This document shows positions 48,265 through 64,000 of a stretch of 64,000 nucleotides of DNA, in pieces (within the stretch, counting starts at the first letter, position 1; the number at the start of each line of letters is the position of its first letter). This DNA comes from Elusimicrobiaceae bacterium (GTDB lineage: Bacteria; Elusimicrobiota; Elusimicrobia; Elusimicrobiales; Elusimicrobiaceae), in the NCBI GenBank assembly GCA_017961585.1, contig JAGCWX010000020.1:150310-214309 (forward strand), read 5' to 3'. The notes below the pieces were generated by a model. The model was not told where the DNA came from. It saw nothing but the letters and a program-made list of their open reading frames with translations, and did no database searches. Position numbers and translations under genes: made by a program.

Positions 48265-48443
48265 ACTTCAACCTCTTTAATAAGCCCATACGCTTGCGCG
48301 GCTTGTTCAATGTTGGGGTACTCATCCCATCCCACGTTTTTACCTTCGGGGGTCCACGCTTCGTGCGCTTCTAAAATATCCCAACGCACGTTTTGCACGT
48401 CTTTATAATTGCCTTCTTCGTTTTGAATTTTCTTGTAAACCAT
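48261..48443 (-). CDS. Small phage protein after the tail fibre (chaperone position)
   Basis: 60 aa; start MVYKKI with SD GAGG; coupled to neighbours. Confidence 0.6.
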   Translation of the reverse strand: MVYKKIQNEEGNYKDVQNVRWDILEAHEAWTPEGKNVGWDEYPNIEQAAQAYGLIKEVEV

Positions 48444-48447
48444 ATTG

Positions 48448-50241
48448 TTACCTCGTAATCGTCCAGCCCTTACCCGTGGCAATAGCCAAATCTTCTGCCG
48501 TCAAATCATTGGCCCCGGTACAACCTGTTACGTTGCACACTTGGGAGTCAGTTACCGTCGGAAAAGAGTTAAACAAGTTGACTAAAGCCCCTTTGTCTAG
48601 CCCCGTGTAAGACACGTTAATTTGCGGGCTTGAGCCACTAAACGGAGCCGAGTTGGAAACTAAAAATCCCTTCAGCCCGTCAATTCTTGCGCTGGAAGCT
48701 CCTCCTATAACGAATTTTGTAAGCCCTGTGGCATCTTGCATATCCAGGAAAGTGTTATCCAAAGAAACATCCCCTGTTAAAAATGCGGCCCCTGTCGTTG
48801 TTGAACTAGTTTCAAGCGGCGGTAATGCTTTGAGCATTGGGCATCTATCAAACGTATTATTGTTGCACGATACCGTAGTATTATCACACGTTATCTTTTG
48901 CAAGGCACTGCATTGACTAAATGAATAAAGTCCACTGCTTGCTTGCATATTTTTAAGCGTTACTCTTTTCAAAGAGCCGCATTGAGAGAACGCTTGATAC
49001 AAACTTACGTTTCCATTTTCGCCGTCAAAAGCAGGCAATTCTACCAGCGAGCTACACGCTATAAAAGAGTTGTAAAGGGAAGATGTAATCACTGCATTTC
49101 CCGAAGCAGTAATCACTTCCAAAGAGGAGGAGTTTCTAAAGCTATCACGCAAATTGAGTGAATAGTTCGTGGTAATATGCGCCCATAACAAACCGTTTCT
49201 ATTGAGGTTGGTTGTGCCTAAACGAGTAAATGTTTGGGTCGTATCGGTAGGAACTAATCGTACAATGTGGGTGCGCAGAGCTGAGGGATAGGTAACATCA
49301 AATCCAGTTGATAAAGCAAGCGTTTGCCAATTGAGTGTGGTGGTAGTACCACTTGCCACAGCAGACACCTGTTTTACACCGTCTACATACACGTCATAAG
49401 TGCCCGAACTCGCAAGCGTAGCGTAAATATCAAACGTGCCATAGGTAGAATAATCAGCACTGTGTCCTACCAAATAATAAACGCTATTTGGCAACGCCCC
49501 GCTGCGGATATCCATCCAATCGGCCGGCTTGACCCACGGGCGGGTTTCGTCCAATTCCTCATCCAATGCAGCAATATCCTCTTTGTTCGTCTGAACTTGT
49601 GCCACTATGCTTGAAGTAATCCCGCTATCTACCGCGGTTTGTTGGGCCGTGGTTAAAGCATTTTGCTTGGCATCCACCGCACTTTGCAAAGCGCTGTCCG
49701 CATTTTGACGGGCCGTTTGCTCCTGCGCAACGGTTTGTTCCAACTGGGTTTTGGTTTGTGCCACGCTATCCAAAGCGTTGGTTAAAGCTGTAGTTTGCGC
49801 GCTGGCAAGTTCTGCTAAAAAAGTAGCCGCATCCGTTCCGGTTTTGCCCGACGATACATCATATTTAATACTACGTTGGGTTTGTTCGGCTATTTCTTGC
49901 ACTTGCAAAGTAAGTTTGTCATATCCGTGCTCTAATTCGGCCGCGTCCAACGTCCCCTGCTGGGTAAGATGGATATCTTGCGTCAACTCACTTTGGCGCA
50001 CAAGCGTGATTTTGTATCCGGATGCCAAGGGATCCAACCCACTGGCCAACGTCGGATAAGTAACCGTATTTTGCAAGGTGTTTACTTCATAGCCGGTGGT
50101 AATTTTTTCTTCCGTACCCTCGGGTGAAGTAACGTATACATACAAGTTAGCGGCAGACAAAATAGGAAAGTCATACTCCCAAGTACGGTTTTCTCCGTCG
50201 GCCTGATAAATTCGTTTACAAATTTGTGAACTGATGGTCAT
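48448..50241 (-). CDS. Tail fibre: T7 gp17-like N-terminal anchor, coiled coil, BspA/TpLRR-type C-terminus
   Basis: YQADGENRTWEYDFPI...ITLVR, LDKLT-like YDKLTLQVQE; repeats F..C..L (FIACSSL, FSQCGSL, FSQCSAL, FDRCPML). Confidence 0.8.
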   Translation of the reverse strand: MTISSQICKRIYQADGENRTWEYDFPILSAANLYVYVTSPEGTEEKITTGYEVNTLQNTVTYPTLASGLDPLASGYKITLVRQSELTQDIHLTQQGTLDAAELEHGYDKLTLQVQEIAEQTQRSIKYDVSSGKTGTDAATFLAELASAQTTALTNALDSVAQTKTQLEQTVAQEQTARQNADSALQSAVDAKQNALTTAQQTAVDSGITSSIVAQVQTNKEDIAALDEELDETRPWVKPADWMDIRSGALPNSVYYLVGHSADYSTYGTFDIYATLASSGTYDVYVDGVKQVSAVASGTTTTLNWQTLALSTGFDVTYPSALRTHIVRLVPTDTTQTFTRLGTTNLNRNGLLWAHITTNYSLNLRDSFRNSSSLEVITASGNAVITSSLYNSFIACSSLVELPAFDGENGNVSLYQAFSQCGSLKRVTLKNMQASSGLYSFSQCSALQKITCDNTTVSCNNNTFDRCPMLKALPPLETSSTTTGAAFLTGDVSLDNTFLDMQDATGLTKFVIGGASSARIDGLKGFLVSNSAPFSGSSPQINVSYTGLDKGALVNLFNSFPTVTDSQVCNVTGCTGANDLTAEDLAIATGKGWTITR

Positions 50242-50253
50242 GTTCTTCTCCTG

Positions 50254-50730
50254 TTATTTAAATAAAGAGGCCAATGCATTGCCCAAGCGGCCCAGGCGGC
50301 CCTTTTTGTTCCCCGCCCGACGATACTGGCGCATGGCTTCCAACAACTGTTGCCACTTGCTGTTATGTTCCTGTTCTTGCGCGGCAGCGGTTGTTTGTAA
50401 AGCCCTTTGTTCTTTGGCGGCTTGCAGTGCGGCTTGTGTTTGAATAGTACGCGCCGCTTCGTCCGCAGAGGCAGACTCAAGGGTCACCCCATGGGCCGCC
50501 CACGCGGCCTGCTGGCGGGCAAGTTCAGCCCGTGCATTTTCATACGCTTGACGGGTCTTCTCCGCCGTCGTACGAAATAAATAAGCGGTTTTTTCTTGTT
50601 GTGCTTGCTGCAAACTTTCCAATTTTTCTTGCGCTTGTTGTTCCCAAGCGCGGTACTGGTTTTTCCGAGCACGCTGTGCCTGACCGGCAGCTGACCACGC
50701 TTTCAAAAAACCCGTTCCGATTTCAATCAT
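50254..50730 (-). CDS. Small internal virion protein-like (Ala/Gln-rich helical)
   Basis: Position after tail tube B; helical A/Q composition; SD GGAG, start MIEIG. Confidence 0.55.
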   Translation of the reverse strand: MIEIGTGFLKAWSAAGQAQRARKNQYRAWEQQAQEKLESLQQAQQEKTAYLFRTTAEKTRQAYENARAELARQQAAWAAHGVTLESASADEAARTIQTQAALQAAKEQRALQTTAAAQEQEHNSKWQQLLEAMRQYRRAGNKKGRLGRLGNALASLFK

Positions 50731-50750
50731 ATAGTTATCTCCTTTTATCA

Positions 50751-53336
50751 TTAAGCGGCTTTTACATCCAAACGAAGCACCGTCAACGGTAGCGGATCGT
50801 GTTGTTCCAACATCACCCCCGACGTAACATCCGTTCGTCCGGCTAAAGGTACGGTTACTTGTCCGGTTTGTAATGAAACCGGCGTATTATACGCTTCCTG
50901 CGTACGTTGTACTAACGGAGTGGATGCCCCCGCGCAAAGGCCTACTTGTCCGCCCCGGCTATTTAAAAGCCATAGTTTCACTTCTACAATGCGGTGCGGA
51001 CGCCCTTGCTGTATCACAGGCAAGGTGCACAGTTGAGCGATGTATCCAAGCCCCACTTGTACTTCTTGAGCCGCAAACGGCAAAGTAATTTGCCCATTAC
51101 TTACGGTTAAATTAGGGACCACATTCCCGTCGGCCACCGCGCAAACGGTTTGTCCGTTTAAATGCGTAAGCCCCGCTACGGCAGTTTGAGCCGTTTGAAA
51201 GGTATGCACAACTGCGGCATCTAAAAATACGCTTTTGTCTGCCTGCGTGGATAGCACGCGTGGAAACATACGTTCCACAAAGTATTGCGTACCACGTTGC
51301 ACCAGTAGCCACACTTCTTCCTGCCCCGGCTGAGGGAGCACACAAATACTGCGCACAAGGCCCTGGGTTTGATGTTGCGTCCAGGCGTAAATGCCTTGTT
51401 CTGGCAGGTACGTTAGCGACAAAAATTTACCGTCCTGGCATGCACACCACAGTAACGAATCTCCCCCCTGCACAAACGCCATTTGCGTGATAGAAGTTTC
51501 TTCAAACAAATGCCGTGCACGCAACGTAAGGTCATCACTTGCGTAAGCCGATGCGGTATCATCGTAATAAAAATCGCGCACCACTTTTCCGCCGGTTTGC
51601 ACGAATAAAATTCGCCCGCCCGCCATCACGGGGGCCACCGCGCTTGCGCCGCGGGAACCTTGTGCTTCCAGCTGGATATGATCCAAGGTAAAAGAGCCAT
51701 TACAAGACAAACTCCACTCTCCCCCCGTCGTAAAAATAAGAAGCCGATTGGCCACACATACCGCTTGAACTGCGTTTAATTGTCCCCCCGATAAACGAAT
51801 GGACAGCGCATCCGTATCCAATAAAGTATCGCGCGCGCGGCCGAAATCCGTCCAATTTCCCGTCTTAGAAAACCACAATGTTTGCGGTTCCTGACGCGTA
51901 GCAGCTAGCCCCAAACGATCTTGGAAACAAAACACACAGGCCGGATATCCCGACGCGGGGCCAAAGGATCCTTCCGCCCATTGCGCACTCCACGCCGAAG
52001 AACCAAAGGCCCGCTCACACGATACCACCAACTGCGTGGCAGATACGTAACTAATTGCTTTGACAATGGCTCGTTGCACAAACGAGTCGGCACTGAGTTC
52101 ATATCCTATTTCCCCGGTAATTTGCCCGGAACGAACACGCACTTTAAACAAATTTTCTGCGTCGTTTAAATTCCCGCTCAAATAGAAATTACTATCTCCG
52201 CTTGCACGCGAAAGGGTTTTCACCGTCTGCCAGGTTTGCCCCAAATCTTTGGAAACTTCCACGCTAACGGTTCCCGTCCACGTTCCGCTGGTGCGCAACG
52301 TCCAATCACTCCCGGACGAAATAGCCGCCGACACGGCTTCATACCCCAAGCTACCGCTTTGATATTGTGCATCCACCGTGTGAATCACACAAAAAAGCGT
52401 ATCTACGTGTTGCGGCACAAAGTAATTGCCATTGCTTTCTAAAATGTATCTGCCTTCTTGGGCAACGGTTTGGGTGCCGTCGTTTTCCCCGCCGCTTAAT
52501 GTTTGTGTGAGTGTGTGAACCGGCGTGGAAGAAAACCCCCGGTGATATTCCAACACAATGGTTTTTCCGTTCCAATTTCCGCCGGTTGCAGCGGGCGAAG
52601 TAATCTGAATAATCCCGCCTAAATTTTGTGCCGTAAACCCTTGGGAACCATACGCCGTATTAAACGCCTGGACCAAAGCAGCCGCGTTAAGCCCAAAATC
52701 TTCGCTGGCGTAAAACCATTCGCCATTGAAGTAGGCCCACACCATACAATCGGTATAATTGACGGGCTGAAAAGAAACGTGCGCAGCTACCCCTTCGCTG
52801 GTAACCGTTGTCGTTTGCGGATAGAGACGCATTTGTTTGGTTTCATCCGTATTTTGCGGCTGAAACGGCCCGCCCTTCAAAGGCACTTGCCCCAACGAAA
52901 ACTGCCCCGGAGCCGTGCATACAAGTTGCATCAAGGGATAATCTGCGTGAGCCAAGTACAACGTGCGGTGATAAGCCGCCGTGCGCAATGTTTCCAGGGC
53001 TTGCGCCGGGTAAGGGGTTTGCAATTCCAACACGTTTCCATTCCCGTCTTGCACGGGGCCGTTATCCGTGTAAAGGCGAAAATATTTTTCCCCGGCTTCT
53101 ATCACGTACATTTCCGTACTGCTAACCACAAACGGAAAAAGCTGCGCACCTTCCCCCGTTGATTTGGCACTTCCCATATACTGCGTACCTGGGCGGTTGG
53201 AAATGCCCCCCTGCGGATGCACCCACATATTTTTGGCCGTTCGTAACCACGTATGATAGGCAGCCGTATCGGTATGGGCTTGAAGGGAAGGGCTAATTTC
53301 CCCGCCGATGAAAGAAGATTGTAACGTTCGCAACAT
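50751..53336 (-). CDS. Tail tubular protein B (nozzle)
   Basis: QSSFIGGEISP, GGISNRPGT, GYPACVFCFQDRL, LTYLPEQGIYAWTQH, VGLGY; start MLRTLQ at 53336. Confidence 0.85.
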   Translation of the reverse strand: MLRTLQSSFIGGEISPSLQAHTDTAAYHTWLRTAKNMWVHPQGGISNRPGTQYMGSAKSTGEGAQLFPFVVSSTEMYVIEAGEKYFRLYTDNGPVQDGNGNVLELQTPYPAQALETLRTAAYHRTLYLAHADYPLMQLVCTAPGQFSLGQVPLKGGPFQPQNTDETKQMRLYPQTTTVTSEGVAAHVSFQPVNYTDCMVWAYFNGEWFYASEDFGLNAAALVQAFNTAYGSQGFTAQNLGGIIQITSPAATGGNWNGKTIVLEYHRGFSSTPVHTLTQTLSGGENDGTQTVAQEGRYILESNGNYFVPQHVDTLFCVIHTVDAQYQSGSLGYEAVSAAISSGSDWTLRTSGTWTGTVSVEVSKDLGQTWQTVKTLSRASGDSNFYLSGNLNDAENLFKVRVRSGQITGEIGYELSADSFVQRAIVKAISYVSATQLVVSCERAFGSSAWSAQWAEGSFGPASGYPACVFCFQDRLGLAATRQEPQTLWFSKTGNWTDFGRARDTLLDTDALSIRLSGGQLNAVQAVCVANRLLIFTTGGEWSLSCNGSFTLDHIQLEAQGSRGASAVAPVMAGGRILFVQTGGKVVRDFYYDDTASAYASDDLTLRARHLFEETSITQMAFVQGGDSLLWCACQDGKFLSLTYLPEQGIYAWTQHQTQGLVRSICVLPQPGQEEVWLLVQRGTQYFVERMFPRVLSTQADKSVFLDAAVVHTFQTAQTAVAGLTHLNGQTVCAVADGNVVPNLTVSNGQITLPFAAQEVQVGLGYIAQLCTLPVIQQGRPHRIVEVKLWLLNSRGGQVGLCAGASTPLVQRTQEAYNTPVSLQTGQVTVPLAGRTDVTSGVMLEQHDPLPLTVLRLDVKAA

Positions 53337-53337
53337 A

Positions 53338-53919
53338 TCAGCGCACCTCGCTAAAAGCGTCTTTTTGCGGCACAAAAGTTACCCGTTCCGACATATTTGC
53401 CCGGCGGGCTTCTTCCAAGTAAAGCGTGTATTTTTGTTGAAGTTGCGCCGCCAGTTCTATGTCCCCGGTTAAAGCCAACGCACAATCCCCCGCCAACGCC
53501 AGCGCAAAGCACTTTACAAAAGCCGGGTCAAACTGGGTTTCATCGGTAATCCGGCGCGTATAACAGGCCACGGCATGGGGCTGAGCGGCACATAATACCC
53601 GTTGATTCAGGGTTGGATCAAAACGTTCCGTGAAAGCCAGGTTTTCCGCTCCAGCCACATAAACGCGGCGGATAAACAACGCATCAGCCGGATATTGGTA
53701 CAAATAGTCACCCCCAGTAGCAACCGGGGTTTGTACGCACACTAAGGGCTTTTCTGCGGTTGCAAAAGCCCAGTTATGGGTACGCAACACCTCATCACGC
53801 ACCGGTTCGTAAAAGAGTTGCAACCAACGCGCGGGCTCATTATTTTGTTGTAATGAGCTGATAGGGGCTTGCCCTAAATAAGCCAAAGCCAAATTACAAA
53901 TAGTTGTTTTTGAGTTCAT
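53338..53919 (-). CDS. Tail tubular protein A (adaptor)
   Basis: ICNLALAYLG, VLRTHNWAFA, YQYPAD, FDPAF..ALALA. Confidence 0.85.
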   Translation of the reverse strand: MNSKTTICNLALAYLGQAPISSLQQNNEPARWLQLFYEPVRDEVLRTHNWAFATAEKPLVCVQTPVATGGDYLYQYPADALFIRRVYVAGAENLAFTERFDPTLNQRVLCAAQPHAVACYTRRITDETQFDPAFVKCFALALAGDCALALTGDIELAAQLQQKYTLYLEEARRANMSERVTFVPQKDAFSEVR

Positions 53920-53920
53920 A

Positions 53921-54190
53921 ATTTTATGTATTATTTTTAAAAATACTTAATTTTTAAATATTTTTTATTTTAATATCATTAAAAATATTTAATATTAAAT
54001 TTATAAATACTTATTTTTTAATAATTTATTTTTTTAATATAAAATAATTTTTAAGTAAATTGATATAAAAAATCGTATTATAAAAAATATATTATTATTT
54101 TAAAAATCTTTATATTTTAATTATTTTTATTTTTATATTTAATTTTAAATGCTGTTTTTGGATTCATTTTTTTAATAAAAAATTTTTCAG
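53921..54190. other. Extremely AT-rich non-coding island
   Basis: 9 G/C in 230 bp (53921-54150, about 96% AT) by manual count. Confidence 0.95.
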
Positions 54191-54430
54191 GCATTTGGAT
54201 AAAGGGAGGGTTAAATCCCTGTTTTTCTACGTCGTATTACCGACGACAAAAAATATCTTTTTTGGGGAAAAAGTGATTTTTACCCCCCTTTTTAGGGGTT
54301 TTACGGGGCGTTATGGGCCCCAAAAACCCTTGTTTTGCGCAAAACCGGCTCTATTTTGCGTTTTTATTCTCCGTTAGAGTTCCCAGTAGCTTGAGTTTGT
54401 TTTAGCAAGGGGCTAAAATCCTTTTTGGGG

Positions 54431-54470
54431 CCGGGTGCCGTGCCCAAACGCGGCACCCGGTTTGTTTTGC
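54431..54470 (+). terminator. Hairpin with T-rich tail on the plus strand, antisense to the cassette
   Basis: ccgggtgccg/cggcacccgg followed by tttgtttt. Confidence 0.55.
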
Positions 54471-54487
54471 GCAAGTTTTTTTGGGAA

Positions 54488-54877
54488 TTACCGCATATCT
54501 ACAATATCTGCCATAAAGCAGCTCATCGCCCCTGCGGTAACGGTGCCGGTTACCGTGTAATAGACACGCAAGTAACGTTTCATCCCGGCCGGAACCGCTA
54601 ACGCAAAGAGATTTTTTTCCGTATCTGCCAGTTGCGTGGCGTTTAACGTTGCGCTAGCCAGGGTAACCACCCCGGAAGAAAAATCAGACTTATCTGACGT
54701 TTGCAAAGCAGCTACTATTTGTGTAGCCCCCGCAAAAGCAGTATCCACATGTCCGATTAACACCAGCCGGCCCGGCACGGCGTTGCCTGCGGCGGTTAAA
54801 TCCACCACGTTCGTGCTGGCTGCGGTGGCACTAATGGTCTGCGCATCCGAAAACATCAAGTTTTGATCTAATAACAT
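54488..54877 (-). CDS. Capsid cement/decoration protein (Bbp16-like)
   Basis: MLLDQNLMFSDAQTISATAASTNVVDL, LQTSD..DFS, RYLRVYY; follows MCP. Confidence 0.8.
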   Translation of the reverse strand: MLLDQNLMFSDAQTISATAASTNVVDLTAAGNAVPGRLVLIGHVDTAFAGATQIVAALQTSDKSDFSSGVVTLASATLNATQLADTEKNLFALAVPAGMKRYLRVYYTVTGTVTAGAMSCFMADIVDMR

Positions 54878-54926
54878 AATTTCTCCTTTTATCTATCGGG
54901 CGAATTAAAATTCCGCCCCAAGCGGC

Positions 54927-55904
54927 CTAGGCCACTACGTCCTCATCGTCGCGGATGGCATCACAAATATGCACCGGGATTTCGTTAAACGTCATCAGCG
55001 GTCTGGACGTAATTTGATCCGGCGTATATTGAATATTGGAACGGTTGGTGGTCAATTTACGAAGTGCCGCTTTGACAGTACGGTTCATATACCACACCGG
55101 TTTGCCTAAAGAAAGACTTTGGATTTTCTCTTCCAAATCACACATTTTGTCAATCAGCGTAGAAGGAACATTGGTTACATCAATGTTGCAAATACGCCCG
55201 GCAAAACGCCAATCTTGCACGGCTAAACCCAATTTCCATTCAAAATATTCTTTGTAGGCAGGGAATTCATTCCCGCTGGCATCTACGTGATTAACCAATC
55301 CGTAATCTACCCGTTGAATGCCGGCTTTGGAGCCCTTGGGAAAAAAGGTAAACACTTTATCCGTATCCCACACAACTAAGTAAATAGACGAGTTTTGCCC
55401 GTTGGTGGAACCGCCGGCGTTTACTACGTTGCGGCTGGACTCGGCACCGGAGAGCGAGTTGTAACGCGCGGCTAATCCGGTAAAGCGTTCCGGCGTAGCA
55501 CCGGAATTTCCGTAAATTAAATTAGACGCCATGGAAGACGACATCCCCGCAATAATCGCGCGGGATTGGCCGCTGCGTACTGCGTCCACATTGCCGCCTT
55601 TTTCGGCCACCAATTTATCCACCACCGAGTAAGCAGAAAGCGTTCCGTAGCTTTCAACTACTACTTTGGTGGTGGCTTTAGCGGGTTCAATGCCTTGATA
55701 AGCGCGGCGCCAAGTTCCTTCGGGGATACCGGTACGTACAGCATATTCATGCCCGGAATCGAGCGAGCTTTCCGCTACAATTGCATCCCCAATAATATCG
55801 TTAGATTCGCTAAGCACTTCGGCAATAGCCAGTTCTTGGCCCGACGGGTCAAACTGCTTGGCATAATCTATTAAGTTGTAATTTTTATCTGCAATAATTG
55901 CCAT
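54927..55904 (-). CDS. Major capsid protein (BPP-1 Bbp17-like)
   Basis: IAEVLSESN, VRTGIP..TWR, IYGN...PERFTGLAARY, GLAVQDWR...RICNIDV, F.EIPV...DAI. Confidence 0.88.
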   Translation of the reverse strand: MAIIADKNYNLIDYAKQFDPSGQELAIAEVLSESNDIIGDAIVAESSLDSGHEYAVRTGIPEGTWRRAYQGIEPAKATTKVVVESYGTLSAYSVVDKLVAEKGGNVDAVRSGQSRAIIAGMSSSMASNLIYGNSGATPERFTGLAARYNSLSGAESSRNVVNAGGSTNGQNSSIYLVVWDTDKVFTFFPKGSKAGIQRVDYGLVNHVDASGNEFPAYKEYFEWKLGLAVQDWRFAGRICNIDVTNVPSTLIDKMCDLEEKIQSLSLGKPVWYMNRTVKAALRKLTTNRSNIQYTPDQITSRPLMTFNEIPVHICDAIRDDEDVVA

Positions 55905-55915
55905 AGATTTTCTCC

Positions 55916-56434
55916 TTAATTTTTTCCGTACAAGGCCTGGGCGAAGGTTTTATCCGTCGTAGCGTTACACACTGCGCCGGGGGTATTGTCTTCGCTTAAG
56001 CGCGTGGCCACCGCGTGAAAGGTACGGACCATCACCGGGTGGTTCCCTAACCCCGTTTCTTCTAACAAGGCACGTAGCTGCGGGCCGCCAAACACATCTG
56101 CCGCACGCACGGCTTTGGAAACTTCCTCCTGCCAACGAGTCCCAAACGCTTGTTGCGTTTGCTGCGCCCATTGTTCCAGCTGTTGTTTTTGCTGAGCGAT
56201 TTTTTCCTGCGCCGCACTTTGCAAGCGGTTTTCTTCTAAAACTAACCACTGCTGCAAAGCCGCGGCGGGCAGTTGAACTTGGGCAGCGGTTTGCTTAAAA
56301 GCCATTACATCCGCCTCAGCCAACAAAGAATTTTCCGGCAGAACAATCTCTGCATACGGGTCTAGGGACGTCTGCGGTGCCGATTCGGGCACAGCGGACG
56401 AAGTTTGTAAATCGGTTTGAGTAGGTTTAGTCAT
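55916..56434 (-). CDS. Capsid scaffolding protein
   Basis: Y.EIVLPE, helical Q/A core, GLGNHPVMVR.F, C-terminal AQALYG. Confidence 0.75.
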   Translation of the reverse strand: MTKPTQTDLQTSSAVPESAPQTSLDPYAEIVLPENSLLAEADVMAFKQTAAQVQLPAAALQQWLVLEENRLQSAAQEKIAQQKQQLEQWAQQTQQAFGTRWQEEVSKAVRAADVFGGPQLRALLEETGLGNHPVMVRTFHAVATRLSEDNTPGAVCNATTDKTFAQALYGKN

Positions 56435-56726
56435 GTTGATTCTCCTGATTGAGTTGATTTTGCAAAGAGGTTACTTCTGCTTGATATTCCCCGCGCATTT
56501 GTTGATACGCACCGGGCAAAGCTTGTTCAATTTCATCCAGCAAAAACAGCCCAATGCTACGTTGCCCGCAATGAAAAGCCGTGGCTAGCGAATCGCCGGG
56601 GATAAAACCGTGGTGACGCACTTGCGCGGCTTGTAAAATTTTCCACAACACGCGGCGGCCTTGTGGGTTTTTTAAAACGGCTTGCATATCATATACCGCA
56701 CGTTTTTTGAGTTTGTTCTCATTCAT
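56427..56726 (-). CDS. Conserved podovirus head protein (Bbp19-like)
   Basis: VL..PQGRRVLW..L, AF..GQRSIGL; start MNENK at 56726. Confidence 0.7.
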   Translation of the reverse strand: MNENKLKKRAVYDMQAVLKNPQGRRVLWKILQAAQVRHHGFIPGDSLATAFHCGQRSIGLFLLDEIEQALPGAYQQMRGEYQAEVTSLQNQLNQENQHD

Positions 56727-56728
56727 AT

Positions 56729-58228
56729 TTAAGCTTCCTCTTTGAGTAAAATCCCATCCACGCCCAAGCTTTCCAGCCCTTCGCGAAATGCTTTTTGATA
56801 ATCCACTTGCCACGCAACGGACGGATCCGCCTGTGTAATTTGCGCGGCCAATTCCAACCCCTGCGCTAACGGCTCTAACGCCGCCGAGCGTTGTGCTTGT
56901 GCAATGGTGGAGGTATAATCCACGTGTAATTCAAGCCCGTTTAAAATTTCCGGCGCGGGTGGCAACATCCCTTGGCGCAGCAAAATAAAATACGTACGTT
57001 CCACCAAAGGGTCCAACAATTCCGTTTTTAAACGCTCAAAGACCGGGCCCAATAAAAGCATTTTTTCTTGGCGCCGCTCGGCCACTTCGGCCGCGGTCAT
57101 GTTGGGTACTTCTTGCGAAGAGAGCATCACAAACACGTCTGCAAAAAAATGAGAGCGAATTGTATCGCGCACTTGTTGCATTGTTTGTTCAAGAGCGGTC
57201 AAATCCGGCTGGACTTGATAGGCCGGTTTTATAGCGGCTTCACTTAAACTGTTACAGCGCGTGATACCGCCGGGAAGTAGGTTTACTTCCCCCTGCACAT
57301 GGGCGGATACCATCACGGGCGGATTGGTATTTTTATCCAACGCCACCAGCTTGGTTTTTTGCATTTTTTGAAGCATTTTTACATCGCCCAGCACCTTCCA
57401 ACCTGGGCCGCGGCCGTAACTTTCCGACGTGTTTTTTGTTTCCCAACGTACGGCAACGACAGGGAATTCGTGATATCCCCCCTCGCGCAACAAGGTTCCG
57501 TCTTCCAAAAAATAAACGGATTTGTAAGCAAAGCAGGTAAAATCCAAGCATTGTTCATCGGCCTGCTCATTGGGCAAAATCAGATGCATCACTTTATGGA
57601 ATGAAGCAGAATTACCTTGTTTAATTTCTTGCAAAATTTGAGGAGAAAAGCGCGCCCCTTCAAAATGTTTTTGTAATTGAGTAGCCGTCATAAAAAATTC
57701 ACGGCCAAACGTATTTACGCGCCCTTTTTCATCAATGTCTAGCACATATTCCCCCGCTGTAAACGGACGGCAAAAAATACCCCCTTGCGGATCTTCTTCC
57801 ACCAAAAAGGCAGCCGTACCAAACACAGCAATTTCTTCATACATGGTTTGTAGCACGCAGTACAAATTGCTTTTGGCAAACGCACTTTCCAACGCTTTTT
57901 TTACTTCTAACAACCAGGCGGAAGCACCGGGTAATTTTTTAAGGCCGCGCGGGCACAAGGTTACATCAAACCAACTGCGCGACGGGCTGGTAAGCCCACT
58001 CATCAGGCCGGCCCCCAGCACCCCTACTGCCAACGAAGCTGAACTATCCAACAAGGTTTTATGATCGATCCGTTTGGCATTGTTCGGGGTTTCGCTTTCA
58101 AAAATCCCGCGGGTAGGGGCCAAATACGTAGCTAATTCTTTCCACGTACGCATCCACGGGATGCGGGTTTGTTTGAGTGCGTCGTACCGTTTTTGATACG
58201 CCGCTGTTTTTTGTGTTTGTATATTCAT
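56729..58228 (-). CDS. Portal (head-to-tail connector)
   Basis: LGAGLMSGLTSPSRSWF, FGTA, YGRGPG, P.MTAAEV.ER.QEK...LGPV.ERL..ELL.PL. Confidence 0.9.
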   Translation of the reverse strand: MNIQTQKTAAYQKRYDALKQTRIPWMRTWKELATYLAPTRGIFESETPNNAKRIDHKTLLDSSASLAVGVLGAGLMSGLTSPSRSWFDVTLCPRGLKKLPGASAWLLEVKKALESAFAKSNLYCVLQTMYEEIAVFGTAAFLVEEDPQGGIFCRPFTAGEYVLDIDEKGRVNTFGREFFMTATQLQKHFEGARFSPQILQEIKQGNSASFHKVMHLILPNEQADEQCLDFTCFAYKSVYFLEDGTLLREGGYHEFPVVAVRWETKNTSESYGRGPGWKVLGDVKMLQKMQKTKLVALDKNTNPPVMVSAHVQGEVNLLPGGITRCNSLSEAAIKPAYQVQPDLTALEQTMQQVRDTIRSHFFADVFVMLSSQEVPNMTAAEVAERRQEKMLLLGPVFERLKTELLDPLVERTYFILLRQGMLPPAPEILNGLELHVDYTSTIAQAQRSAALEPLAQGLELAAQITQADPSVAWQVDYQKAFREGLESLGVDGILLKEEA

Positions 58229-58296
58229 AACTAATCCATTTCCTTATGTACAATTTGACGCAAAATTTACTATCATACAAATACACGGAGGTATGT

Positions 58297-58473
58297 ATGA
58301 GCGGAATTATTTTGATCTTTTTATTTGTAGTATTACTAGCAGTGCCGGGGTTTTATGTGATTACGCGTTGGGTGTTCCCCAAAGGGAGCAAACGCAACGC
58401 CCGGCTTATATCCTACAGCTTGACAGCTTTGTTAGTAACTATTTTGGCAATTGTAATGTTTGCCAACCTGTAA
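58297..58473 (+). CDS. 58-aa two-TM membrane protein on the opposite strand (moron)
   Basis: SD GGAGG, ATG 58297, two hydrophobic helices around KGSKRNAR, own terminator. Confidence 0.65.
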   Translation: MSGIILIFLFVVLLAVPGFYVITRWVFPKGSKRNARLISYSLTALLVTILAIVMFANL

Positions 58474-58494
58474 TACTACTGTTTGATTATATAT

Positions 58495-58529
58495 TGCCTG
58501 CCGATTATCGGCGGGCATTTTGTTTGTTT
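58495..58529 (+). terminator. Terminator of the moron gene
   Basis: tgcctgccga/tcggcgggca followed by ttttgtttgttt. Confidence 0.7.
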
Positions 58530-58592
58530 ACTGCTGCGCGCAAGAGTGCATAAAAGGTAGGAACGCGCTGCTTTTGAAGTTTACATACGTCT

Positions 58593-58621
58593 ATATTAGC
58601 AAATTTTGTAAGTTTTGTCAA
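58593..58621 (-). promoter_or_regulatory. sigma70-type promoter between terL and portal
   Basis: TTGACA (58621-58616), 17 nt, TAATAT (58598-58593), with extended TG. Confidence 0.7.
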
Positions 58622-58653
58622 GTATTTTTTTAGGCCTATTTTGGGCCTTCTTT

Positions 58654-59967
58654 TTACACTACATCATACTCCGTTTGCGCGAACTCAACCCTGGCAGCAC
58701 CTTGCCAAGAAGCCCGAACCGGGGCCGCAAACGTAAGGGCCAACGCATCGGCTAGATCGGGGCTTTTGCCGGTGCGCTCTTTAAGTTTTTCTTTACTTTC
58801 CAACCGCAAGCGGCCGGAGGCATCGTACTCATAACAAACTTGGCATAAATCCGCTTTGAGCGCAGAAACGTCGGGCAAAATGCCCACGGTTTTAATCCAT
58901 TGCGCCATTTCCCCCCACATTTCCGCACGTTTGTTGGCATATTGACTGGGCTTGCCGGCACTGCCGCCAAAAGGCACTTCCACAACGTTGCGGTACCCCA
59001 ATTGACGCAAGCGGTCAATCACTCCGCCGCCACAACCGGCATCCACAAATACGGCGTCCGGACGAAAGCGTTCTATTTCGTGCGCCACGCGCGAGGCCAA
59101 CGTCATATTATCCATCCCCTGAAAAACAAGTGGCACAAACGCTTTCACACCCTGCCGGCAAAAAATGACACTGCGGTCCGTCCCAAAACGGGCCGGGTCC
59201 ACCCCCATAATTTTAGGTGCATAGCGGATATCTTCCAATGCGGTTTCACGCGCGCACGCCGCTGAAACGGCATCAATGGGGATTAAAATATTTTGTGCAC
59301 TGGCCGAAAAATCACACAAATATTCTTGCCGAAAAATAACAGGGGGCGTATCCTGTTTTAAGCGCGCAAGTTCCGCCGGAGCAATCACGTCCGATTCATC
59401 TGCGCGAAAAATTCCTACCCACCACACCGAAGGTTCGGCCTGAGCATTTTTTTGTGCTTGGCAAAAGAGTTCATAAAACGCGTTTTGCCCTTTGGGGGTG
59501 CCCATAAACACCGCCCACCCTCGGCGCGATAGCAACATCGGGCGGATAATTTGCGTAAATACATCGGGCTTAATTTGAGCATATTCATCCAGCACCACTC
59601 CGTCGGCATATGTACCGCGCAACGCGTCGGGATTATCCGCGCCGCACACCCAAATACGCGCCCCGTTTGGCAAAGAAACACACAACTCGGTTTCCAAAAA
59701 ATGCACCCCCGGGATTCCCTGCGCAAAGCGTTTTAAATAATCCCAGGCAATAAGTTTGGCTTGTTTTAAAAACGGTGCCACATAAAAATAGCGGGGCCTT
59801 TCACGGGGATTGTCCAATGCCATACGGATTAAATGATTGACGGCGCAAACCGTTTTACCTAACTGACGGTGCGTGACCAACACATTAAACCGATGCGTCT
59901 GCAAGGCCTGATGAATGATCCGCTGTACCCGACGCGGACAATAGTTAATTTTCACTTTCTTTTTCAT
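58654..59967 (-). CDS. terL: Terminase large subunit
   Basis: Walker A HRQLGKT, DNPDALRG, Walker B VVLDE, MGTPKG.N.FY, nuclease GVDPARFG.D and SPDLADA. Confidence 0.93.
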   Translation of the reverse strand: MKKKVKINYCPRRVQRIIHQALQTHRFNVLVTHRQLGKTVCAVNHLIRMALDNPRERPRYFYVAPFLKQAKLIAWDYLKRFAQGIPGVHFLETELCVSLPNGARIWVCGADNPDALRGTYADGVVLDEYAQIKPDVFTQIIRPMLLSRRGWAVFMGTPKGQNAFYELFCQAQKNAQAEPSVWWVGIFRADESDVIAPAELARLKQDTPPVIFRQEYLCDFSASAQNILIPIDAVSAACARETALEDIRYAPKIMGVDPARFGTDRSVIFCRQGVKAFVPLVFQGMDNMTLASRVAHEIERFRPDAVFVDAGCGGGVIDRLRQLGYRNVVEVPFGGSAGKPSQYANKRAEMWGEMAQWIKTVGILPDVSALKADLCQVCYEYDASGRLRLESKEKLKERTGKSPDLADALALTFAAPVRASWQGAARVEFAQTEYDVV

Positions 59968-60340
59968 CCCAAACCACCTCTACTTTTTCAAGCGGACGGG
60001 CATTTTCTCTCCAGCCGCACAAATTTTTAGCGGTAAACATGGCAAAACTGGCTGCGTAATTTCCGCGCAAACTGTTTTGAATTAAAATATCCGCTTGCCG
60101 ATCACGCGCTTGTTCGCAAGCATACGCAAAGGCCGGATATTTTTCCTCCCACCCGTGCAATTCTTGCCGCGTAACACCGATCTTTTTGGCAAAGGCCGCA
60201 AACGTGGGCAGTTGCGCCGCGGTTTCCAGCAAAGTAATGGAACCGTCCTTTTTTTGTACTTCGGTTACGTGAAAGGCAATTTGGTCAAAAAATTTTAATA
60301 ATTCGTCGCAAAACTCGGCTTGATACTTTATTTTTTTCAT
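59945..60340 (-). CDS. terS: Terminase small subunit
   Basis: KY..EFC, HTH-like FAKKIGVTRQELHGW, AMFTAKNLCGWR; overlaps terL start. Confidence 0.75.
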   Translation of the reverse strand: MKKIKYQAEFCDELLKFFDQIAFHVTEVQKKDGSITLLETAAQLPTFAAFAKKIGVTRQELHGWEEKYPAFAYACEQARDRQADILIQNSLRGNYAASFAMFTAKNLCGWRENARPLEKVEVVWDEKESEN

Positions 60341-60636
60341 TTTTCCTCCAGCAAGGCCAACTCAAAATTAAACTCTTGAACGCCGCCAAGTGCCCCCAGC
60401 GTTTGGGGTAAACACGCCCGCTGCGCGCGGTATAATTGCCATGCTTGCAATGTTTCATCCGGCGGGCAAAAATTATGTTGATTCTCTTCTAAAAACTGAG
60501 CGTTATACACGTGAAGCAGCGTTTGCAACTCCAAATCTTCCGACGCGGATACCAACGCTCCGTTGCAAGCATCCACCGCAGCATGAACCGCAAAAGCCCG
60601 CGCAAAAATTCTGTTTTCCAATTCCAATTTAGACAT
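60337..60636 (-). CDS. Hypothetical protein, first gene of the cassette
   Basis: 99 aa, SD GGGGGAG, ATGA overlap with terS. Confidence 0.65.
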   Translation of the reverse strand: MSKLELENRIFARAFAVHAAVDACNGALVSASEDLELQTLLHVYNAQFLEENQHNFCPPDETLQAWQLYRAQRACLPQTLGALGGVQEFNFELALLEEK

Positions 60637-60645
60637 ACTCCCCCC

Positions 60646-60737
60646 GCACCAAAACGGTGCAACATCACAGCGGTGCTTACCGAAGTAAGCACCGCAAAAG
60701 CATCTATTTGTATGGATGCCCGGCGGTATTTCCGCCG
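60646..60737 (-). promoter_or_regulatory. Array of four RNA hairpins between yfcC-like gene and the cassette
   Basis: cggcgg/ccgccg; gcatc/gatgc followed by TTTT; 11-bp stem with cUUCGg loop on the minus strand; gcacc/ggtgc next to the SD. Confidence 0.65.
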
Positions 60738-60747
60738 AGCCACAAGA

Positions 60748-62136
60748 TTACCAACCCGATAGGTACGGCGGAACGAGCAGTAGCATAGAGAGCACTGCTA
60801 AAATAATTTGTAATTTAATATTCCATTTAGCCCATTTGAGCCAAGGGATCCCGGCCATTCCTAAAGCGGCCATCGTCACCGGCGCCGTGGGAATAATGGC
60901 GTTGGTCCAGCCCTCGCCAAATTGGTAAGCCAAAATGGAAAGCTGCGGGCTGATATGCATCAAATCCGACAACGGGATCATTACCGGCATGGTCAACACC
61001 GCTTGACCGGAACCCGACGCAATAAAGAAGTTTAAAAAGCTATGCGCCCAAAACATTCCTTCCACCGCGGCCAACGGGTGCAGATGACCAATCCCCGAAA
61101 CAATGGTATGCAAAACGGTATCCAAAATTTTTCCGTCGCCGGCTATCACCACAATAGCGCGCGCTAAGGCAAGCATAACCGCCACGCTTACCATGCTGCG
61201 GGCGCCGTCTATAACGGCATCGGTGGTTTGATTTAAACTGAGGCGTCCAATCAGCGCGGACAAAATTCCCACGCCTAAAAACAAGCCGGAAATTTCAAAA
61301 ATAAACCATTCATATTTGGCCACTCCCAGCACCAAAAGCGCCATCCCCAGCGCAAAAATAATGCAAATCAGCACGTGGGTCGTTTTAAAATCGGGCTTTT
61401 GGATAGAAGTCAAATCCAACGTTTCGCGGCGTTTTTGATCGGCTTCGTACGTCAAACTAAGTTGAGGATTTTTACGAACTTTTTCCCCATACCACATGAC
61501 AAATCCAATCACTACCGCCGTACAAATAAACCACACCAGCAGGCGGTAACTCATCCCGGAATATAAGGGCAGTTGGGCAATCCCTTGTGAAATTCCCACG
61601 GTAAACGGATTCATAAAAGCCGAACCGAACCCAACCCACGCCCCTAAAAACGGAATGCTCACTCCAACCACCGTGTCGTACCCCAGCGATAAGGCAAGCG
61701 GAATAAACAGGGGAATAAAAATAAGGGTTTCCTCTTCCATGCCAAACACGCTGCCCCCTAGTGAAAACAACAGCATGCTGACCGGAATAAACCATTTTTT
61801 TAATTTTTCGCGCTTAGAGAACAAATAGCTTGTTCCCATGATGACAGCATTGACCGTTCCGGTGCGCTCCAAAATCGTGAAGATAGCACCGGTAATAAAA
61901 ATGAACACAATGATATCTGCACATTTTGTAAACCCTTGCGCCGGGGCCATCAGCACCGCCATCACCCCTTGCGGGGCCGATTCAACGGTATGATAGGAAC
62001 CCGCCACCGTATAGGTGCGGCCGTCTTTTTCCACGGTATCGTATTGACCCGCGGGTAATAGCCAAGTAAGCCCGGCTACCAAAAGCATAATAGCGAAAAT
62101 AAGTCCGTAAATATTAAGTGAAAAAGTTTTCTGCAT
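60748..62136 (-). CDS. YfcC-family transporter (basic amino acid antiporter / anaerobic C4-dicarboxylate carrier-like)
   Basis: LTWLLPAGQY, GMEEETL, NPFTVGI.Q.IA, FFI.SGSGQA..TMP, AYQFGEG. Confidence 0.9.
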   Translation of the reverse strand: MQKTFSLNIYGLIFAIMLLVAGLTWLLPAGQYDTVEKDGRTYTVAGSYHTVESAPQGVMAVLMAPAQGFTKCADIIVFIFITGAIFTILERTGTVNAVIMGTSYLFSKREKLKKWFIPVSMLLFSLGGSVFGMEEETLIFIPLFIPLALSLGYDTVVGVSIPFLGAWVGFGSAFMNPFTVGISQGIAQLPLYSGMSYRLLVWFICTAVVIGFVMWYGEKVRKNPQLSLTYEADQKRRETLDLTSIQKPDFKTTHVLICIIFALGMALLVLGVAKYEWFIFEISGLFLGVGILSALIGRLSLNQTTDAVIDGARSMVSVAVMLALARAIVVIAGDGKILDTVLHTIVSGIGHLHPLAAVEGMFWAHSFLNFFIASGSGQAVLTMPVMIPLSDLMHISPQLSILAYQFGEGWTNAIIPTAPVTMAALGMAGIPWLKWAKWNIKLQIILAVLSMLLLVPPYLSGW

Positions 62137-62302
62137 ATTTAAATATTATACTAAACCTATCACTTCAATATCATAGAGCTGCGCGGCGCCGCAACAGCAA
62201 CTGCATAGATAGCAAGCAAAGTTTGGATGTCGCCGGAAGCCCTTTTTAAATGCGGGACGGTCTGTTACCTTTTAAACTTTACTAACCATTTTTGCTTTTT
62301 TA

Positions 62303-62311
62303 TGCTATAAT
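62303..62311 (+). promoter_or_regulatory. Extended -10 promoter facing the repressor gene
   Basis: TGCTATAAT. Confidence 0.55.
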
Positions 62312-62317
62312 ATAATA

Positions 62318-62470
62318 AGAGCTAGGCACTTAGGCCAGGTTCTTAACAAGGCGGAGCACTCTGCCGCAGGGCTGCGGCTCTGTTTAGGGGATAAACCTTC
62401 CGCTTTGTAGATATAGCACCGGGTAAAATGATTTACCCATAACACGCAGGGCAAATTCCCCTTTGTGTAT
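62318..62470 (+). ncRNA. Structured leader or sRNA candidate
   Basis: Stems acaaggcgga/tccgctttgt, gccgca/tgcggc, gttta/taaac, gggtaaa/tttaccc; G-U pairs favour the plus strand. Confidence 0.4.
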
Positions 62471-62474
62471 AGTT

Positions 62475-62503
62475 AGTATAGCAAGTTTTGTGCTGTTTGT
62501 CAA
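62475..62503 (-). promoter_or_regulatory. Near-consensus sigma70 promoter divergent from the repressor
   Basis: TTGACA (62503-62498), 17 nt, TATACT (62480-62475), with extended TG. Confidence 0.8.
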
Positions 62504-62552
62504 GTAGTTTAAAGACCTAGAAGGACCTATTTAATATTAGGAGAATAAACAA

Positions 62553-63239
62553 ATGAACAAATTTGAAAAAGCCCTTATGAATTGGAATGACGGCATCCTT
62601 AGAGGTGCGCAAGCTAAGCTAGCAAAAGAATTACGCGTTTCTACCGCAACCGTTGCCTTATGGACCATTGGCAAACGCAATCCCTCCAAGGGGTATGTGG
62701 CGATGATGGCTAAACTGTTTGGAATGAGCGAATTTGAGGTTTTACGCCTGTTTATGCCCGCCACCTATGCCGACGGAACCCCCCGCTCCACCGCTTTTCA
62801 AGAAAGCAATAGCGACGCTTTTTACAATACTGACAAAGAAGCGGAAGTCCTTGCTCCGCAAAGTAACAGTGTAGCCCTGCCCTATTTGGCCAACGTGCCC
62901 GCCGGTTACCCGGATTTTAACGAAGGGGACGTGATTGAATGGTGGACGTTACCCCGACGCTACGCCAAAGGTGCCAAATATTTAGTGCGTTGCTGCGGCG
63001 ATAGCATGAAAGGCAGCGTGGAATATGATGATTTGTGCCTCATCAAGCCGGAAACCGAATTTTTAGACGGCAAAGTAATGTTAGTCAAAGTACAAGACGG
63101 GCATTTAATCAAACGGATCCGCAAAGAAAACGGCAAGATTGTCCTTTATTCCGATAATGATAAAAAGTACAAAGCTTTTTCCCCCAACATGGTGCAACCC
63201 GTCGGGCTGGTGGTACGCAAAATTACGGACGTACAATAA
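62553..63239 (+). CDS. cI/LexA-like repressor (XRE HTH + S24 peptidase)
   Basis: HTH AQAKLAKELRVSTATVALW, Ala-Gly site NVPAG, catalytic GDSM and IKR; SD AGGAG. Confidence 0.9.
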   Translation: MNKFEKALMNWNDGILRGAQAKLAKELRVSTATVALWTIGKRNPSKGYVAMMAKLFGMSEFEVLRLFMPATYADGTPRSTAFQESNSDAFYNTDKEAEVLAPQSNSVALPYLANVPAGYPDFNEGDVIEWWTLPRRYAKGAKYLVRCCGDSMKGSVEYDDLCLIKPETEFLDGKVMLVKVQDGHLIKRIRKENGKIVLYSDNDKKYKAFSPNMVQPVGLVVRKITDVQ

Positions 63240-63255
63240 ATTTTAAAAAAAGCCC

Positions 63256-63283
63256 TTGACATTTTTGAGTTTTCGCTTATACT
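63256..63283 (+). promoter_or_regulatory. sigma70 promoter of the candidate ncRNA
   Basis: TTGACA (63256-63261), 16 nt, TATACT (63278-63283), A-tract UP element. Confidence 0.7.
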
Positions 63284-63289
63284 ATAAGT

Positions 63290-63603
63290 ACGCCAGGGCA
63301 GCAGTAAATGTCTTTTGGCTCTTGGGAGTGACAAAAGAACTGCGCTTTGTGTTGGCCGTGCCCATGGGCGCGGGTAGGATAAAACGCAGGCCAATGGCGC
63401 AAGATGTTTGGGAAGCAGAGGTTAGGTTGAATGACCGTTTCACGAGCCCGGTTCTTTACCCTTGTGAGGGTAAGGGTTCACCCCGGGAGATGGAACCGGC
63501 AATCGGCCCCTACACTAAACATTGTTTCCGCCAAGCTGCCGGGTGTCCACTTATGGAACAGGAAAAATGATCCCCTCGTATGAGAATGCGAGGGGACTTT
63601 TTT
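63290..63603 (+). ncRNA. Candidate ~310-nt structured non-coding RNA of unknown class
   Basis: Own promoter and terminator; several nested helices; no convincing ORF. Confidence 0.55.
63571..63603. terminator. Terminator shared by the ncRNA candidate and hydF
   Basis: tcccctcgta/tgcgagggga followed by tttttt. Confidence 0.75.
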
Positions 63604-63622
63604 GTTCAACTTTGCGTAAAAA

Positions 63623-64000
63623 TCACATTCCTTTTTTACGGAAAATTTCGGTAACGCGCTTAAAAATACCGTTACACCAAGCAATGGTTAAACCGTAGTT
63701 ACTCACCGGCACTTTGGCCTCTTTCAAAATAGCCAAGCGGCGTAAAATTTGCGTGCGCGTTACCATACATCCGCCACACTGAATAGCCAGCTTGTATTTC
63801 CCGAGATTCGCCGGCAACGGGTCCAAATTACTTACCGTTGTAAATTTTAATTTCTTGCCGGTATGTTTTTGCAACCATTGCGGGATTTTTACGCGGCCGA
63901 TATCGTCGCACTTATTAACGCTGTGCGAGCAAGATTCCAGCACTAAAATTTCATCCCCCTCCTGCAGTTTATCAATAGCCGGCGTGCCCTTCAAAAAGGC
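63623..64000 (-). CDS. hydF: [FeFe]-hydrogenase H-cluster maturation GTPase HydF, C-terminal part
   Basis: ILVLESCSH..DDIGRVKIP, CGGCM, VPVSNYG; gene starts outside window. Confidence 0.9.
   Translation of the reverse strand, partial: AFLKGTPAIDKLQEGDEILVLESCSHSVNKCDDIGRVKIPQWLQKHTGKKLKFTTVSNLDPLPANLGKYKLAIQCGGCMVTRTQILRRLAILKEAKVPVSNYGLTIAWCNGIFKRVTEIFRKKGM

Follow-up and report, generated by a model that had tools for sequence, protein, structure and literature searches.

What is encoded in the short interval between a cI-like repressor gene and the gene hydF, near the right-hand end of a 64,000-nucleotide (nt) stretch of an Elusimicrobiaceae genome? This stretch of contig JAGCWX010000020.1, called the window throughout, comes from an assembly of 1.49 Mb in 36 contigs that is 98% complete (G000). 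A preliminary description of the window had pointed to a highly structured, stand-alone RNA in this interval. The locus was compared with its relatives and with known RNA families, and we propose that positions 63290 to 63603 of the plus strand are the gene for a structured RNA of an undescribed class, namely an "RNA moron" of a phage module with a 3' end that ribosomes would gate; we hold this reading at about even confidence. Comparison of homologues shows that the predicted multi-helix body, with a helix that closes its 5' and 3' ends on each other, has been preserved by compensatory evolution. Given a conserved open reading frame (ORF) of 5 to 6 codons at 63553 to 63570, referred to below as the mini-ORF, the RNA is probably not purely noncoding.

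Homologues, transcription unit, and fold

Relatives with approximately 70% identity were found by BLAST in sister species, and a scan for conserved motifs added more, in uncultured gut and rumen Elusimicrobiaceae labeled "Elusimicrobium sp." or "Ca. Avelusimicrobium." They form three subgroups: group 1, which includes the window's RNA, with lengths of approximately 315 to 330 nt, and groups 2 and 3, with lengths of approximately 380 to 440 nt. Group 2 links the others, having its apical arm in common with group 1 and its 5' domain in common with group 3. Two covariance submodels were built, one of the apical arm (R1, and its successor after one iteration, R2, built on alignment A3) and one of the 5' domain of groups 2 and 3 (R3, alignment A4). 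R2 matched 69 and R3 matched 67 of the 227 genomes of the order. Together they matched 90 of the approximately 96 genomes whose inferred membership places them in the window's genus, with one copy in each except the metagenome-assembled genome (MAG) G087, and they matched nothing in 131 genomes from 24 other genera of the order. The six genomes of the genus without a match comprised one in which the contig ends at the repressor gene (G004), one in which inspection by eye reveals a further divergent copy (G076), two in which the repressor homologue is directly followed by the next gene (G016 and G080), and two incomplete MAGs with no repressor match (G032 and G097). G087 carries two repressor-RNA modules of different subgroups (L100 and L148) on two contigs of 2.7 and 39 kb, which reflects either contamination of the bin or the coexistence of modules of different specificity.

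The strong promoter and the intrinsic terminator that had been proposed are both present (Table 1), and both are conserved in the homologues: the pair of -35 and -10 hexamers is kept throughout group 1, and TATACT is also retained in groups 2 and 3. A GC-rich stretch begins approximately 7 nt 3' of the promoter and ends as the terminator hairpin. The gene that follows is variable, being hydF in convergent orientation (63623 to 64000 of the window, minus strand), hydF in the same orientation with its own promoter, or, in group 3, a yggS-like gene with its own promoter. The initial view of a stand-alone transcription unit is borne out by this combination of a promoter and terminator kept in every homologue with a downstream gene that changes. 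Two side observations concern this region. The -10 hexamer is one arm of an inverted repeat, ATACT-N3-AGTAY (63278 to 63292), that spans the predicted start site and is seen in all subgroups; its arms are conserved, its center is variable, and it is a perfect palindrome in most group 3 promoters, so that it could be an operator or a constraint on the initiation region. At the other end, hydF is convergent in the window and co-oriented elsewhere in the genus (L081 and L086), and a local inversion must therefore have taken place next to the RNA gene.

Table 1. Positions of the RNA, its parts, and neighboring features in the window
Feature	Position	Strand	Remarks
Sigma-70-type promoter: TTGACA (63256-63261), 16-nt spacer, TATACT (63278-63283)	63256-63283	+	11 of 12 consensus positions
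Predicted transcript, about 314 nt	63290-63603	+	5' end inferred from -10 spacing; 3' end is the terminator U-run
P1, 5' strand: ACGCC (P1a) and GGCAGC (P1b)	63290-63302	+	Pairs with 63535-63546
Hairpin P2: GUCUUUUG...CAAAAGA, with inner GGCUC/GAGU stem	63310-63338	+	Helix 2; 95.5% of cells paired, 5 pairs changed on both sides
Hairpin P3: CUGCG...CGCAG; internal strands GUGUUGGCC and GGGUAGG conserved	63340-63389	+	Helix 3; 21 pairs, 16 changed on both sides
Long arm, P4-P8	63395-63533	+	Base helices variable in sequence, always complementary; holds the apical domain modeled by R1/R2 (63417-63511)
CACGAGCCCGG: 5' side of conserved internal loop (CGAG) and helix CCCGG	63441-63451	+	Invariant columns
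Apical hairpin: UUACCCU-UGUG-AGGGUAA	63452-63480	+	Helix 4; variable in sequence, covarying; 98% of cells paired, 7 of 8 pairs changed on both sides
CCGGGAGAUGGAACCGG: 3' side of conserved internal loop (AGA) and flanking helices	63483-63499	+	Invariant columns
P1, 3' strand: GCUGCC and GGGUGU	63535-63546	+	Ends 7 nt before AUG
Mini-ORF: AUG GAA CAG GAA AAA UGA (MEQEK*)	63553-63570	+	AUG 7 nt after closing helix; stop abuts terminator stem (63571)
Intrinsic terminator: 11-bp stem (63571-63596), 4-nt loop, T6 (U6) run (63598-63603)	63571-63603	+	Kept in all homologues
Repressor gene, HTH_3 and Peptidase_S24, 228 amino acids	62553-63239	+	Pfam; PHROG "transcriptional repressor" and "CI-like repressor"
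Promoter TG-TTGACA-17-TATACT, leftward	62503-62475	-	Divergent from repressor
DcuC/YfcC-type transporter gene	60748-62136	-	Left of repressor
Podophage-type structural genes: tail fiber, tail tubular B and A, major head, portal, TerL	48448-59967	-	Co-oriented; between tRNA region and transporter/repressor genes

The fold was assessed on the segment from 63290 to 63605. The minimum free energy of its plus strand was -135.2 kcal/mol, compared to -105.9 +/- 5.0 kcal/mol for dinucleotide shuffles (z = -5.84), and none of the 100 shuffled sequences folded as well; the minus strand reached a z score of only -2.9. The signal is therefore real, strand specific, and well beyond chance. RNAalifold was then applied to 18 full-length group 1 sequences and predicted 77 pairs. 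In this alignment, 92.4% of the cells were paired, compared to 40 to 48% when the 3' partners were slid by 1 to 3 columns, and changes on both sides had occurred in 47 of the 77 pairs, compared to 15 to 21 in the slid controls. For the apical arm, represented by 28 distinct sequences, 94% of the cells were paired versus 32 to 55% in the controls, and 27 of 31 pairs had changed on both sides. The covariation among the collected homologues that the preliminary description had called for, and the highly structured RNA that it had suggested, are thus both found.

The conserved architecture has four parts: the closing helix P1, the hairpins P2 and P3, and a long arm. P1 consists of ACGCY/RGCGU followed by a variable helix of 5 to 6 bp, P1b, which is GGCAGC/GCUGCC here and GAUGG/CCAUC, GACAG/CUGUC, or GGGUG/UACCC in other species; P1 and the helices at the base of the long arm are supported species by species. 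The internal loop of the long arm, in which CACGAG (63441 to 63446) faces GAGAUGG (63487 to 63493), is invariant. The complementary segments listed in the preliminary description are all present at their listed positions, and four of the seven helices drawn from them are conserved. Of these, ggcagc 63297/gctgcc 63535 covaries between species, tcttttg/caaaaga and ttaccct/agggtaa are backed by the comparative data, and tggcg..atgtttgg/ctaaacat..cgcca, at the base of the long arm, is conserved in structure but not in sequence. The remaining three are local coincidences confined to the window, with covarying replacements. In place of gcagt/actgc, ACUG opens the helix formed by CUGCG (63340 to 63344) and CGCAG (63385 to 63389); in place of ttggcc/ggccaa, the conserved partner of UUGGCC is GGGUAGG; and in place of ccggttc/gaaccgg, the conserved pairs are CCCGG (63447 to 63451) with CCGGG (63483 to 63487) and ACCGUUUCA (63434 to 63442) with UGGAACCGG (63491 to 63499).

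The same alignments bear on the idea that the locus is a protein-coding gene, with either a 104-codon frame (63256 to 63570) or a 58-amino-acid frame (63522 to 63698) as its product. Both frames are open in the window. The longer one, however, is open only here and in one nearly identical relative, the longest frames of the other homologues differ in strand, phase, and position, and substitutions compensate base pairs rather than codons. The internal 58-amino-acid ORF, which had been singled out as a possible source of codon-level conservation, is not conserved among the homologues, nor is any other long ORF. Both frames were ruled out, and we give a protein-coding gene next to no probability.

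Comparison with known RNA families

Does this RNA belong to a family that is already known? All 4,227 families of Rfam 15 were searched against the whole window with cmscan, and the only matches that passed the gathering score were two tRNAs. When the segment from 63150 to 63700 was searched at an E value of up to 10, only four chance-level matches were obtained (E values of 1.1 to 7.6; 15 to 19 bits), lying on the terminator or the opposite strand; 6S RNA, T-box, and riboswitch and leader families gave no match in this segment. The earlier suggestion of a new RNA class is therefore in agreement with Rfam 15, both at the gathering score and at the relaxed threshold.

The preliminary description had also noted that the hallmarks of RNase P RNA, transfer-messenger RNA (tmRNA), and signal recognition particle (SRP) RNA are lacking, and Rfam confirms this for all three. 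RNase P RNA (RF00010), which most genomes encode in one gene only, was rejected as a candidate: the RNA region gave no match, the genome's own copy lies at G000:C23:22764-23090 (202 bits), and a copy was detected in 35 of 41 relatives. The tmRNA (RF00023) was rejected likewise, with no match in the RNA region and the genome's own copy at G000:C36:33544-33887 (133.6 bits); nearly all relatives have one as well. As a separate observation, ARAGORN reports no tmRNA anywhere in the genome, though the Rfam model gives a full-length one at C36 (134 bits); the tmRNA of this lineage escapes the heuristics of ARAGORN.

That the RNA might be a highly divergent SRP RNA of the large type, with an Alu domain, was an early working hypothesis. 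Its topology of a closing helix, two hairpins, and one long arm resembles that of large SRP RNAs, and neither RF00169 nor RF01854 detected an SRP RNA in this genome or in 61 genomes of the order. The protein partners of such an RNA, however, are missing as well. The genome lacks Ffh and FtsY: none of its ORFs bears the DTAGR or GKTT motifs of these GTPases, and a tblastn search of it with Escherichia coli Ffh gave a best E value of 0.001. PF00448 scored over its cutoff in none of 41 genomes from 11 genera of the order, compared to all 14 control genomes. In addition, the helix 8 motif is not conserved, its occurrence here (GGAAGCAG at 63411) not being kept in the homologues, and the RNA is confined to one genus while the loss of the SRP is order-wide. 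The hypothesis was dropped on the absence of Ffh and FtsY from the genome and the order and on the one-genus range, and we now regard it as extremely improbable. Apart from this candidate, the counts for SRP RNA and for the SRP54-type GTPases Ffh and FtsY suggest that the SRP pathway is absent throughout the order. SRP proteins have already been reported to be scarce in Elusimicrobia (PMC7987157).

The closest likeness is one of kind. ROOL, GOLLD, OLE, and raiA RNAs gave no covariance-model match in the region, and what they have in common with this RNA is that all are large, structured, orphan, and phage linked: they stand alone, are heavily folded, have conserved loops, and have no known function. 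Prophages often carry ROOL and GOLLD (PMC5737381), and several such ornate RNAs form homo-oligomers (PMC12286853), to which the covarying self-complementary element of groups 2 and 3 described below is a parallel. The RNA studied here is smaller, at 315 to 440 nt compared to approximately 580 to 800 nt for ROOL and GOLLD, and unlike all four it occurs in a single genus only, is preceded by one and the same repressor gene, and has a mini-ORF at its terminator.

The mini-ORF at the terminator

All homologues whose 3' end is complete (approximately 47 distinct sequences) had the mini-ORF, always as an AUG, 4 to 5 further sense codons, and a stop codon; the length variants differ by exactly 3 nt, giving 5 or 6 sense codons in all. 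In approximately 45 of these sequences, the stop codon falls from -8 to +3 nt, and mostly from -2 to +3 nt, from the base of the terminator stem as called by a script, the two sequences outside this range being ones in which the stem call is doubtful. The encoded peptide is not conserved, the variants including MEQEK, MEKAIS, MKKAK, MEESTR, MRMLAN, MKECT, MKEST, and MQKQE. A canonical Shine-Dalgarno sequence (GGAAGGA) lies 6 to 8 nt before the AUG in group 3, and group 2 has a purine-rich stretch.

Several known types of RNA end in, or contain, a short ORF. In dual-function small RNAs (SgrS/SgrT, RNAIII/hld, and Spot 42/SpfP), as here, one transcript combines RNA structure with a small ORF. 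Their ORFs encode conserved peptides of 15 to 43 amino acids; the frame here has 5 to 6 codons, is conserved in position and length but not in peptide sequence, and has its stop at the terminator. In the minigenes of the lambda bar loci and in comparable minigenes, a very short ORF is expressed from a strong promoter, and it is the act of translation that matters rather than the peptide. The present RNA likewise has a very short ORF in phage-derived DNA behind a strong promoter; the frames of bar consist of 2 codons, lack a large folded body, and have peptidyl-tRNA drop-off as their effect.

This likeness leads to an explanation in which the RNA would be the mRNA of the mini-ORF, whose translation would yield a micropeptide or peptidyl-tRNA drop-off, and the folded body would be a long regulatory leader (a riboswitch, a thermosensor, or a protein-binding element) that controls initiation. 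The AUG, the length of the frame, and the position of the stop codon are conserved in all subgroups, group 3 has a strong Shine-Dalgarno sequence, and the closing helix abuts the ribosome-binding region, all of which would be expected. Against it, no known aptamer is matched, the peptide varies, a leader of 270 to 380 nt for a frame of 5 amino acids is unprecedented, and the codons of groups 2 and 3 seem to be constrained by self-complementarity of the RNA rather than by amino acids. We judge this explanation to be unlikely.

A second explanation that starts from the mini-ORF is that of a transcription attenuator, in which translation of a leader peptide suppresses the terminator and so drives a downstream gene. 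In leader-peptide attenuators (pyrBI/pyrE, trpL, and ermCL/msrDL), a short ORF ends at or in the terminator, and a ribosome there can block the hairpin. The mini-ORF too is a short ORF ending at an intrinsic terminator, and its abutting stop codon reproduces the geometry of the pyrE/pyrBI and msrDL/ermCL types. Unlike in those systems, the body upstream is far larger, no alternative antiterminator was identified in the RNA, and nothing suitable follows it: hydF is convergent here, and elsewhere hydF or the yggS-like gene has its own promoter 40 to 150 nt further on. The attenuator is disfavored because no downstream gene is conserved, and we consider it very improbable.

Two further observations concern mini-ORFs outside group 1 and outside the window. 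In groups 2 and 3 (L101 to L109 and L115 to L133), codons 3 to 5 hold a self-complementary element of 6 to 10 nt, with the variants AGUCGACU, AACCGGUU, UGUCGGCA, GUUGGCUAAC, GUGCAC, and CUGCAG, which the window's own RNA lacks. Symmetric compensatory changes, with G-U pairs allowed, keep the element self-complementary, each single case being only weakly significant. This pattern suggests pairing between RNA molecules at a homodimerization site. Elsewhere in the genome, at G000:C6:about 9130-9350 on the minus strand, a smaller unit of approximately 190 nt has a promoter of like style (TTGAAA-17-TATACTATTAGTA) and a short ORF (AUGAAAAUGACACGAAUGAGCUAA) that abuts a terminator, and the same UUUUUCUGCCUAAAA context comes next; this unit may encode a related RNA terminated by a mini-ORF.

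The repressor neighborhood and a proposed role

The RNA had been placed directly behind a cI-like repressor gene, and the assignment of that gene by Pfam and PHROGs upholds this; the canonical LexA of the genome is encoded elsewhere, at C33. The RNA adjoins the repressor in 28 of 30 loci, in all 18 group 3 loci, and in most of the 21 repressor loci taken from genomes without a match to the first models. This adjacency persists though the identity of the repressors drops to 40 to 50% between subgroups, and in one genome (G078), the RNA is retained and the repressor is lost.

There is no terminator between the repressor gene and the RNA, and therefore the same sequence also forms the 3' untranslated region (UTR) of the repressor mRNA. 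This raises the question of whether the RNA is primarily such a region, acting in cis as a retroregulatory or stability element, with the internal promoter being secondary. The gap of only 17 nt between the repressor stop codon (63239) and the -35 hexamer and the near-invariant linkage to the repressor gene fit this explanation. Retention of the RNA in G078 after loss of the repressor, however, does not, and neither does the dedicated near-consensus promoter conserved in every species; moreover, a body of 300 to 400 nt with invariant loops and a mini-ORF exceeds what protection of a 3' end needs. A cis-acting 3' UTR therefore seems doubtful to us as the main identity of the RNA, and we regard it as unlikely.

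The reading that we favor is that of an autonomous RNA gene. The unit resembles phage morons in that it has its own promoter and terminator and is sited in the immunity region, next to the repressor that belongs to a phage-derived cluster, and it differs from them in that its product is a structured RNA rather than a protein, in its vertical inheritance across a genus, and in not being found in phage records. It also recalls the C4 RNAs of P1 and P7 and the CI RNA of P4, whose genes lie in phage immunity regions alongside or instead of a protein repressor; those RNAs are approximately 77 to 79 nt long, are processed from precursors, and have clear complementarity to operon targets, with none of at least 11 nt to the adjacent operon found here. 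Antisense control of that operon was considered and is disfavored on this count, which leaves room for short seed pairing.

Two observations on the flanking DNA are recorded here. The motif GGRCCTA is repeated (as AGACCTA GAA GGACCTA) at 62515 to 62545, in the interval between the divergent promoters that precede the repressor gene, and inverted copies (AGACCCTAGGTCT and AGGCCCAGGGCCT) overlap the -35 hexamer of the RNA promoter in several species (L080, L085, L087, and L094); in this window, the site on the side of the RNA promoter (63240 to 63261) is degenerate. With these repeats, the repressor gene has candidate operators on either side. The transporter gene has an untranslated leader of approximately 340 nt (62137 to 62503, minus strand) with a GC-rich hairpin (62363 to 62378) and no Rfam match at the gathering score.

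The data show a structured RNA that stands alone and is linked to the repressor of a module derived from phage, and we infer its function from there. As a moron, the RNA would be a unit of promoter, gene, and terminator kept in the immunity region, and its product would be not a protein but a folded RNA that acts in trans or a ribonucleoprotein (RNP) scaffold. Candidate sites for binding or tertiary contacts, by their appearance, are the internal loop CACGAG/GAGAUGG and the A-rich joints. The mini-ORF would serve as a ribosome-docking device and not as a peptide gene: a 30S subunit could bind at the AUG only by opening P1, which has the end of its 3' strand 5 to 10 nt upstream, and a ribosome at the stop codon would have to melt the terminator stem. 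A frame of 5 to 6 codons is approximately the shortest that would let an initiation complex sit beside an intact hairpin. Translation would in this way make the RNA alternate between two states, one closed and protected and the other open with an exposed 3' end, and the activity or lifetime of the RNA would therefore be coupled to the translation status of the cell.

Several points weigh against this proposal. The covariation counts are drawn from related sequences, and their statistics are not corrected for phylogeny. Both expression of the RNA and translation of the mini-ORF are deduced from sequence, and group 1, to which the window belongs, has a weak Shine-Dalgarno sequence (AAGG approximately 10 nt upstream) or none, so that translation in this subgroup may be inefficient. 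The RNA has no perfect complementarity of at least 11 nt to the leftward phage-like operon (plus strand of 46000 to 62503). The RNA is also absent from phage genomes and IMG/VR contigs, and its phage origin is argued from position: 50,697 phage records gave no match, and in IMG/VR, the only two pattern matches were chance ones in coding sequence of 74% GC, while the group 3 pattern matched nothing.

The proposal can be extended, though we offer the extension tentatively and think it more probably wrong than right. The RNA could be a "ribosome-gated" regulator that gives a domesticated phage, or a particle system like a gene transfer agent (GTA), a second arm of its immunity switch, one that works at the RNA level. 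Its folded body would bind the repressor, RNA polymerase, or another factor and would be active only while closed. A ribosome on the mini-ORF would unzip P1 and the terminator, so that translation capacity would set the activity or half-life of the RNA and, with it, the particle decision, and the palindrome of groups 2 and 3 would add a homodimeric state that blocks ribosomes.

To our knowledge, new bacterial RNA classes of 300 to 400 nt with such covariation are rare. Earlier RNAs of this kind have proved to act as ribozymes, as riboswitches, or as scaffolds of RNPs. We have found no description, for any class, of a design in which a large closed RNA body is linked to an ORF of 5 to 6 codons with its stop codon in the terminator hairpin, and this design has been kept even in places where the primary sequence has mostly changed. 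The phylum to which the RNA belongs has received little study and, unusually, has lost the SRP pathway. As a tractable model, the RNA lends itself to asking how ribosomes might govern the state of a noncoding RNA, and its fixed place beside the cI-like repressor of a podophage-derived cluster suggests a new RNA component in the control circuits of phage- or GTA-type systems.

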